Origin: Escherichia coli
GTDB taxonomy: Bacteria > Pseudomonadota > Gammaproteobacteria > Enterobacterales > Enterobacteriaceae
Strand: one strand, 5' to 3'
Assembly: GCF_044324785.1 (NCBI RefSeq)
Contig: NZ_CP172127.1
Length of the DNA stretch: 64,000 nt
Position numbers: made by a program. Shown piece after piece: positions 49,601-52,600 of this stretch (position 1 is the first letter of the stretch; each line of letters begins with the position of its first letter).

Positions 49601-52600
49601 TCACGGGCTTTGACGCCAAACGGCTAAAAAAACTCTACCTCGGGCGGGTGATCAGAAAGCACAACCTGCTCCAGGCGCTGACCCGCGTCAACCGAACCTA
49701 CAACCACTTCCGCTACGGCTATGTGGTGGACTTCGCCGACATCCGCCAGGAATTTGACGCCACCAACAAAGCCTACTTCGAAGAGCTACAGGCTGAACTG
49801 GGCGATGAAATGGAGCATTACTCCCGCCTGTTCAAATCAGCGGATGAGATTCGCGAAGAAATCGAACATATCAAAGACGTTCTGTTTAGCTTCGATACCG
49901 AAAACGCGGAAATCTTCACTGACCAGATAAACCAGATCCATGACCGGGAAACCGCGCTGGTACTGAAAAACGCGCTGGCCGACGCCCGCAGCCTGTACAA
50001 CCTGATTCGCCTCCAGGGCAACACTGAGTTTCTCCAGGCGCTGGATTTCAACAAACTCAACATCCTTTACCGCGAAGCCAGCCGCCGCCTCGACTTACTC
50101 AACCTGAAGGCGGATCTGGAACAGGGTGTTGACCTCTCCGGCCTGCTGAACCGGGCGCTGGAAGAGGTGATCTTTGAATTCCACAAAGTGGGCGAAGAAG
50201 AGCTGGTACTGGCCGACGAGCTGAAAGAGACGCTGCGCCGCACCCGCGAAGCGCTGGCCGCCAACTTCGACCAGCAGGACCCGCAGTTCGTCAGCCTGAA
50301 AGACGAACTGGAGCGTCTGTTTAAGAAAAAGAAACTCAGCGAAGTCACCCAGCAAGAAATGGTTGCGAATATCGGCACACTCAATAAAATTCATGGCCGC
50401 ATCAAAGAGCTAAACCGCCAAAATAACCTGCTGCGCCAGAAATACCGTGGCGACGTGAAATACGCGCGTACCCACAAACGCCTGCGCGAGCGCGGCGGCC
50501 TGAGCGAGCCGGAGCGTAAAATCTTCGAAGCACTGCTTGGCGTTAAGCTGGATGCGGATGAAAAAGTGCTGAATAACAGCCAGATACTGAACAACGAAAG
50601 CTATTTTGAGCGGCAGATTGTGTCATGTGTACTCGATCACTTTGAACAACAGCAGCACATCACCCTGAGTGCGAAAGCGGCTGGCGACATCAACCGCCTG
50701 ATTGTGGCGGAATACCTGAACGAATTTAATACCGGAGCACGTACGTGGTAGAACTGTAATTTAGAGATAAAACCAAAACCCTGATCGACAGCCTGAAAAG
50801 CATCTGTGCGAACTACGGCCTGGGCAACGACGGTAACGAATTCAAAATTATCACTCAGGCATTCCTGTACAAATTCCTGAACGACAAATTCGCCTTTGAA
50901 GCCAAAAAGGTGGATAAAAGCATCGCCAGCGCCGAAAAATGGGAAGTCGCGCTCAATCAGATGAGCGAAGAACAGCGGGATAAACTGCAACTGAAGATGA
51001 GCGCCGACACTGCGCGTCTGAAGCCGCATCACTTCATTCAGTATTTATACAACCGTCAAAATGAGGCCAATTTCGCCACCACCTTTGACGACACCCTGAT
51101 GGACATCGCCGCCACCAACAACGACGTCTTCGCGGTCAAAACTGACGGCGGCGCGAAAGTGGTGCTGTTTGAGCGCCTCAGCCAGTACATCGCCGACGAA
51201 TCAAGGCGCGACGACTTCTGCCGCGCCATTATCAACAAACTGGCCGATTTCAGCTTCGAGCGCATCTTCACGCAGAAATTCGACTTCTACGCCACTATCT
51301 TTGAATACCTGATCAAAGACTACAACAGCAACTCCGGCGGCAAATACGCGGAATACTATACGCCCCACGCCGTGGCGCGCATCATGGCGGAAATCCTGGT
51401 GCCGAAAGCACAACAGGGCGTAGTGCGCAACGTAAGCTGTTACGACCCGTCCGCCGGTTCCGGCACCTTACTGATGAACGTGGCGCACGCCATCGGGGAA
51501 GATCGTTGCAGCATCTTCGCGCAGGACATCTCGCAGAAATCCTCCAGCCTGCTGCGCCTGAACCTGATCCTCAACAATCTGGTGCATTCGATCCCCAACG
51601 TGATTCAGGGCAACACCATTCTGCACCCGTTCCACAAGGACGGCAGCGCGCTGAAACGCTTTGACTATATCGTCTCTAACCCGCCGTTTAAGATGGATTT
51701 CAGCGATTTCCGCGACGATTTGGATAGCAAGGAAAACCAGCAACGTTTCTTTGCCGGGATACCAAAAATCAAAGCCAAAGCCAGGGACAAAATGGAAATT
51801 TACCAGTTGTTCCTGCAACACATCATTTTCTCGCTGAAACCGGATGGTAAGGCGGCGGTCGTGGTGCCGACCGGGTTTATCACCGCGCAGTCGGGCATTG
51901 ATAAAGGGATTCGCGAACATCTGGTGAAAAACAAGATGCTGGCGGGTGTGGTTTCCATGCCGTCGAATATCTTCGCCACCACCGGCACTAACGTATCGAT
52001 CCTGTTTATTGACGCCAGCAACAAAGAGAAAGTGGTGCTGATCGACGCCTCGAATTTAGGTGAAAAGGTCAAAGACGGCAAAAACCAGAAAACGGTGCTG
52101 ACCGAAGAAGAAGAGCAGCGCATCTGCGAAGTGTTCAACAACAAGTGGAGCGAAGAGGATTTCTCGGTGGTGGTCAGCTATGACGAGATCGCCGGGAAAA
52201 ATTACTCGTTCAGCGCCGGGCAGTATTTCGATGTGAAAATTGAATACACCGATATGACGCCGGAACAGTTTGCCGCGAAGATGAACGGGTTTACGGAGAA
52301 TCTGGAGAGTTTGTTTAGCCAGTCGCGCGAGCTGGAGGTGGAGATTAAAAAGCAGATGGCGGGGCTGAATTTCCATGGTTAAAACTATTGGTGATGCTTG
52401 TAATATTAGTACAGGTAAACTTGATGCAAACCAGGCTGTAAAAGGTGGTGATTATCCGTTTTTTACGTGCGCAGAGTTCCCTGAACAAATCGATCATTAT
52501 GCATTTGACGGCGATGTGGTTCTTATTGCTGGCAATAATGCAAGAGGAAACTTTCACGTAAGCAGGTATCAAGGGAAATTTAATGCTTACCAGCGAACCT

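Follow-up and report, generated by a model that had tools for sequence, protein, structure and literature searches.

The hsdM gene of a type I restriction-modification operon in Escherichia coli (NCBI RefSeq assembly GCF_044324785.1, contig NZ_CP172127.1) has very probably become a very recent nonsense pseudogene through a single G to T transversion at position 50757, which turns the fifth codon, GAA, into TAA (E5*) and most likely switches the whole system off. All positions are those of the window, the whole stretch of 64,000 nucleotides that was analysed. An earlier note on this DNA had described an hsdM without a canonical start codon. The feature is real but ordinary: a known gene carries a nonsense mutation particular to this strain, public databases already contain it under an annotation that looks deceptively normal, and it holds no new biology.

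Operon layout and native start of hsdM

The plus strand of the window carries hsdR, hsdM and hsdS, the layout of a three-gene type I restriction-modification operon. hsdR (47653..50751, + strand) is apparently intact, encodes a protein of 1032 amino acids with matches to Pfam HSDR_N, SWI2_SNF2, ResIII and T1R_D3-like, and ends with the stop codon TAG at 50749-50751. Its DNA is the same as in two public loci (L010 and L014) in which the gene is called as 1032 aa. The rest of the hsdM frame, comprising residues 6-545 and the stop codon (50760..52382, + strand), is free of further lesion. Its product matches Pfam N6_Mtase (E=2.6e-61), with a catalytic domain at residues ~180-498, and the methyltransferase motifs I (DPSAGSG, residues 234-240) and IV (NPPF, residues 312-315) were found to be invariant in the alignment of relatives. 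hsdS (52375..53493, + strand, 372 aa) contains two target-recognition domains, with two stretches matching Pfam Methylase_S, and its start overlaps the end of hsdM by 8 nt. It is identical to the 372-aa hsdS located beside intact hsdM in eight public loci (L010-L017). The operon thus has the adjacent genes of a type I system, namely R (nuclease and SF2 translocase), M (N6-adenine methyltransferase) and S (two target-recognition domains). Of the three frames, which should each be complete and translatable in an active system, hsdR and hsdS are intact and hsdM is interrupted by TAA at codon 5.

The ancestral start of hsdM is the GTG at 50745..50747 (+ strand), which overlaps the stop codon of hsdR in the sequence GTGGTAG (7-nt overlap). 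A GGAG Shine-Dalgarno sequence at 50734..50737 (+ strand), within the end of hsdR and 7 nt 5' of the GTG, is present in all homologs examined, and the anti-Shine-Dalgarno pairing at this GTG (-5.8 kcal/mol) is the best among the candidate starts in the region. The same GTG is the first start codon following the in-frame TAA at 50727. Translation of hsdM is coupled to that of hsdR via the 7-nt overlap and is served by the GGAG. The sequence was matched in 587 of 5,426 complete RefSeq E. coli genomes at 80-96% identity; in all four of the E. coli RefSeq genomes inspected, PGAP annotates the hsdM coding sequence from the GTG equivalent to 50745, and the eight public loci encoding the intact protein also annotate the equivalent start. 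Further away, in a search of 1.84 billion representative proteins, full-length relatives of 529-564 aa at 38-64% identity were found to align their residues 2-11 with residues 2-10 of the query, and none of the full-length relatives in this search begins near residue 56. Homologs that also start at the GTG at 50910, which encodes residue 56, had been named in the earlier note as evidence that would speak against its reading; no such homolog was found.

A promoter-like site, TTGCGA-16-TAAAAT, is located at 50363-50390 (+ strand), ~355 nt before hsdM begins and still within the 3' end of hsdR. Scanning the locus for promoters and terminators yielded 8 sites versus 5.5 expected by chance, and since this count is not above chance, no claim is made for an internal hsdMS promoter.

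The genes for an AbiEii toxin (306 aa) and an AbiEi antitoxin are located directly upstream of hsdR (45680-47390, - strand) in divergent orientation, and, with a LysR regulator gene on one side and thrW on the other, the AbiE pair and hsdRMS make up a small defence island. Likeness to the loci carrying the intact allele stops at 54715, where E. coli N3 has its tRNA-Thr (thrW); ARAGORN detected no intact tRNA in the window. The end of a P22-like prophage follows (~54716-64000) and includes genes for a hexapeptide acyltransferase (55045-55716), a tailspike with a P22 head-binding domain (55736-58105, - strand) and an Ant-like antirepressor (58205-59083, - strand), as well as matches to injection-protein genes. 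Inside this prophage region lies an ORF for a DDE transposase of 322 aa (59742-60710, + strand; DDE_Tnp_1_5 / DDE_Tnp_1), which is probably an IS insertion. On the other side of the island, the window carries a gene for an inverse autotransporter of 1416 aa (18359-22612, - strand) with IAT_beta, nine Invasin_D3 and four Big_1 repeats, and a fimbrial operon (28026-34866, + strand) encoding a MatB/EcpA-type fimbrillin and its usher; both lie upstream of paoABCD and are adhesin loci of a kind ordinary for the E. coli chromosome.

The hsdR-hsdM cassette (47400-52370) was also found in five loci of other species (L005-L009). In four of them (Enterobacter sp. Bisph1, Enterobacillus tribolii, [Erwinia] mediterraneensis and an uncultured Enterobacteriaceae genome), the DNA identity is 91-94% for this stretch and 91-97% for the cassette; in Brenneria alni it is 81%. 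Matches between hsdS and these five loci are confined to the conserved spacer regions. This distribution is consistent with horizontal spread of the cassette accompanied by swapping of target-recognition domains.

A premature stop at codon 5

The premature stop TAA occupies 50757..50759 (+ strand), and the HsdM-like frame resumes directly after it, from 50760 (FRDKTKTLIDSLKSICANYGLGNDGNEFKIITQAFLYKFLNDKF... / FRDKTKTLIDSLKSICANYGLGNDGNEF...). This is what the earlier note had reported, and its statement that no ATG, GTG or TTG occurs in this frame until the GTG at 50910 (ORF 50910..52382) is also correct. By itself, a run of ~50 codons lacking these starts is unremarkable, with a chance of ~5-10% by rough estimate; what carries information is the stop codon. 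Upstream of the TAA, this frame continues for four codons without interruption, back to the GTG at 50745 (GTG GTA GAA CTG TAA), and alignment with homologs showed that homology runs on through these codons. What is left at the native start is a four-codon mini-ORF, M-V-E-L-stop (50745..50759, + strand; translation VVEL*FRDK...). The TAA is the single internal stop in 50745-52382. In the alignment, the homologs read GTG GTA GAA CTG GAA TTT AGA GAC AAA ACC and the window reads GTG GTA GAA CTG TAA TTT AGA GAT AAA ACC. An alignment of this kind had been proposed in the earlier note for finding the ancestral start; it places that start at GTG 50745 and identifies the TAA itself as the lesion.

Comparison with intact alleles indicates how recent the change is. 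The base at 50757 is T in the window and G in four E. coli loci, in five loci of other species and in eight loci encoding the identical protein. The five loci of other species came from a scan of GTDB species representatives in which the variable base was set to N; G is found at the hsdR-hsdM junction in each of them (Enterobacter, Enterobacillus, Brenneria, [Erwinia] mediterraneensis and one uncultured Enterobacteriaceae genome). When E5 is restored, the HsdM of the window equals the 545-aa protein P0001 exactly. Records of P0001 exist for 252 contigs (493 index blocks), and eight P0001 loci keep one gene order: LysR, AbiEii, AbiEi, hsdR (1032 aa), hsdM (545 aa) and hsdS (372 aa). Two of these loci, L010 and L014, the latter from assembly GCA_037978695.1, were compared with the window over 9,700 bp (44745-54444), and the sole difference is position 50757, with G in them and T here; three further intact loci each have one extra differing base, outside the operon. 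The exact 64-base stretch around the TAA (50727-50790) has no identical match in the 5,426 complete RefSeq E. coli genomes, the best match having 2 mismatches. A premature stop relative to intact orthologs, present as a single lesion on an otherwise identical background, is the pattern of a recent nonsense pseudogene. Two other candidate explanations for the stop were dropped: phase variation, as the site has no repeat tract, and programmed recoding, as the stop is missing from all homologs.

Two alternative accounts of the lesion concern the start codon and the quality of the base call. The earlier note had found the ACC at 50772 consistent with a mutated ATG, the original start of hsdM. The ACC is at 50772-50774 as described, and the GAGA said to precede it at 50763-50766 is actually located at 50764-50767, positions 50763-50766 reading AGAG. 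The position after a purine-rich stretch is all that speaks for a mutated ATG, but all intact homologs have ACC or GCC at this codon with the same AGAGA(C/T) before it, so that the ACC is ancestral and not a decayed ATG; moreover, the homology extends upstream through codons 1-9 to the start at GTG 50745. A lost ATG at 50772 is therefore refuted. It is also extremely improbable that the gene is intact and that an error in sequencing or assembly produced the T at 50757. A one-base difference between otherwise identical loci is what such an error would look like, but the T recurs in the Logan assembly of SRR31073010, where 10.7 kb show 0 differences from the window, TAA included, and this reproduction in an independent assembly makes an assembly artefact unlikely. 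In addition, the truncated 490-aa product is on record for E. coli (WP_395765665.1 / XJR03832.1) on 3 contigs, the longest being a 5.48-Mb chromosome, and the change is a substitution rather than a homopolymer indel. The assemblies bearing the TAA may share one isolate as their origin.

Probable consequences for the system

With E5* at codon 5, ribosomes starting at the native GTG 50745 would terminate after four codons, and little or no functional HsdM would be made. On its own, the intact HsdR would then do no harm. Because HsdM, as part of M2S1, is needed for both restriction and modification in type I enzymes, the system is probably r- m- in this strain, performing neither methylation nor restriction. 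Expression of hsdS is probably reduced too, through lost coupling and possibly Rho polarity, since the start of hsdS overlaps the end of hsdM and would lie behind 1.6 kb of now-untranslated RNA. An inactive system was one of three outcomes listed in the earlier note, and in light of E5* it appears to be the best supported of them.

The N-terminal ~150 residues of HsdM are described as folding well into a domain of their own, and mutations located there change methylation and may even eliminate restriction (PMC12707154). Pfam HsdM_N was not matched in the HsdM of the window at E<=0.001, and the N-terminal helical domain of type I M subunits was recognized by alignment with the solved HsdM 3lkd (query 29-523 versus 27-503 of 3lkd) and by the fold of an AlphaFold model (mean pLDDT 87.6). 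The model fits solved type I M subunits over the full length, with TM-scores of 0.71/0.81 over 517 columns for 3lkd, and it also fits PacII and EcoR124I. In this model, residues 2-23 and 30-56 form two long helices. The best-conserved N-terminal segment in the alignment of relatives is at residues 13-50 (LIDxLKxxCxxxGLGNxGxEYKIITxxFLYKFLNDKF), with F40 and K43 invariant.

The first canonical in-frame start after the stop is the GTG at 50910..50912 (+ strand, residue 56), from which a truncated HsdM (residues 56-545, 490 aa) would retain the untouched catalytic domain. A truncation of about 50 residues from this GTG, one of the outcomes considered in the earlier note, matches the public annotation, in which PGAP calls the 490-aa ORF a normal protein. 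Precedent for such a product exists in early nonsense mutants of lacI, which yield restart proteins from internal GUG and AUG codons. However, GTG 50910 has no usable Shine-Dalgarno sequence (anti-Shine-Dalgarno pairing of -0.2 kcal/mol, essentially none) and is located 150 nt past the stop. Its equivalent codon reads AAA in the homolog from E. coli 504239, so that it is not a conserved alternative start, and no full-length relative starts there. Given the positions of the helices in the model, the product would also lack the two helices with which the N-terminal domain begins, together with the most conserved N-terminal motif. A functional HsdM from GTG 50910 is unlikely, and retention of some methylase or restriction function by the truncated protein is very improbable. 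More of the protein would be kept if re-initiation occurred at CTG 50781 (L13) or ATC 50784 (I14), or if the TAA were read through or suppressed by an ochre suppressor, giving near-full-length HsdM at a low level and residual modification. Both codons are in frame, 22-25 nt past the stop and directly before the conserved LIDxLK motif, and conservation among relatives is poor over the first 12 residues. Against this, the Shine-Dalgarno-like pairing for the two codons is weak (-2.9 and -2.7 kcal/mol) and ~13 nt away, and near-cognate codons in E. coli initiate at ~0.1-1% of the level of ATG. The base following the TAA is T, and TAAT is reportedly the most efficient stop context in E. coli, which argues against read-through. 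Low-level HsdM of this origin is thus very unlikely, and there is accordingly a very small chance that modification of DNA, and perhaps restriction, persists in the strain by this route. If it did, the strain would be a natural case of an early nonsense codon functionally rescued by non-canonical re-initiation, with the motif from residue 13 kept.

The preferred reading, a system switched off by E5*, bears on how the locus is recorded and used. In public annotation, the 490-aa remnant (50910-52382) appears not as a pseudogene but as a normal "class I SAM-dependent DNA methyltransferase" (WP_395765665.1 / XJR03832.1), so that the nonsense mutation is invisible in the annotation. Inventories of restriction-modification systems would consequently count a probably dead type I system as active. 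A strain whose system is off would have one barrier fewer against incoming DNA, with a bearing on transformation, phage susceptibility and the interpretation of the methylome. For other cases of a "missing start codon", the frame upstream of the nearest stop should be checked. The useful outcome here is the corrected reading, that is, E5* and an ancestral GTG start at 50745, together with the annotation caveat.

Relation to known type I systems

By architecture, domains and fold, the system of the window is a conventional type I system. It has the same three-subunit HsdR/HsdM/HsdS architecture and domain content as EcoR124I/II (type IC) and EcoKI (type IA). At the sequence level, the HsdM proteins of these systems are distant matches to that of the window: EcoR124II HsdM matches in the catalytic domain only (E=2.6e-33), and EcoKI HsdM in residues 182-423 only (E=2e-7). 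Judged by sequence relatedness, the system is close to neither the type IC (EcoR124I) nor the type IA (EcoKI) exchange family. The scores against the TIGR models are also below the curated cut-offs, with 149.7 bits versus 242.75 for TIGR00497 (hsdM equivalog) and 259.4 versus 284.55 for TIGR00348 (hsdR). The system is a divergent branch, and PGAP names its HsdM at the family level only ("HsdM family class I SAM-dependent methyltransferase" for P0001).

The arrangement of the genes shows one likeness to and one difference from EcoKI. Overlap and translational coupling of hsdM and hsdS are known in EcoKI (PMC3510504). In contrast to the 7-nt overlap of hsdR and hsdM in the window, EcoKI has a separate promoter between these two genes (PMC12707154).

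The closest known relative is the intact E. coli P0001 allele, which has the same protein apart from residue 5, the same neighbours and the same 372-aa HsdS. Its codon 5 is GAA where the window has TAA, and its cassette adjoins thrW/proA, whereas in the window strain the cassette is followed by the P22-like prophage.

Loss-of-function alleles of hsdM are reportedly commonplace in papers on strain genomes and methylomes, for example in a methylome study of Mycobacterium tuberculosis and in genomes of E. coli cloning strains. In natural and laboratory r- m- strains, one point mutation in hsdM is enough to remove both activities, and the loss proposed here would be of the same kind. E5* differs from the known r- m- hsdM alleles in being a new allele and in affecting a different type I system.
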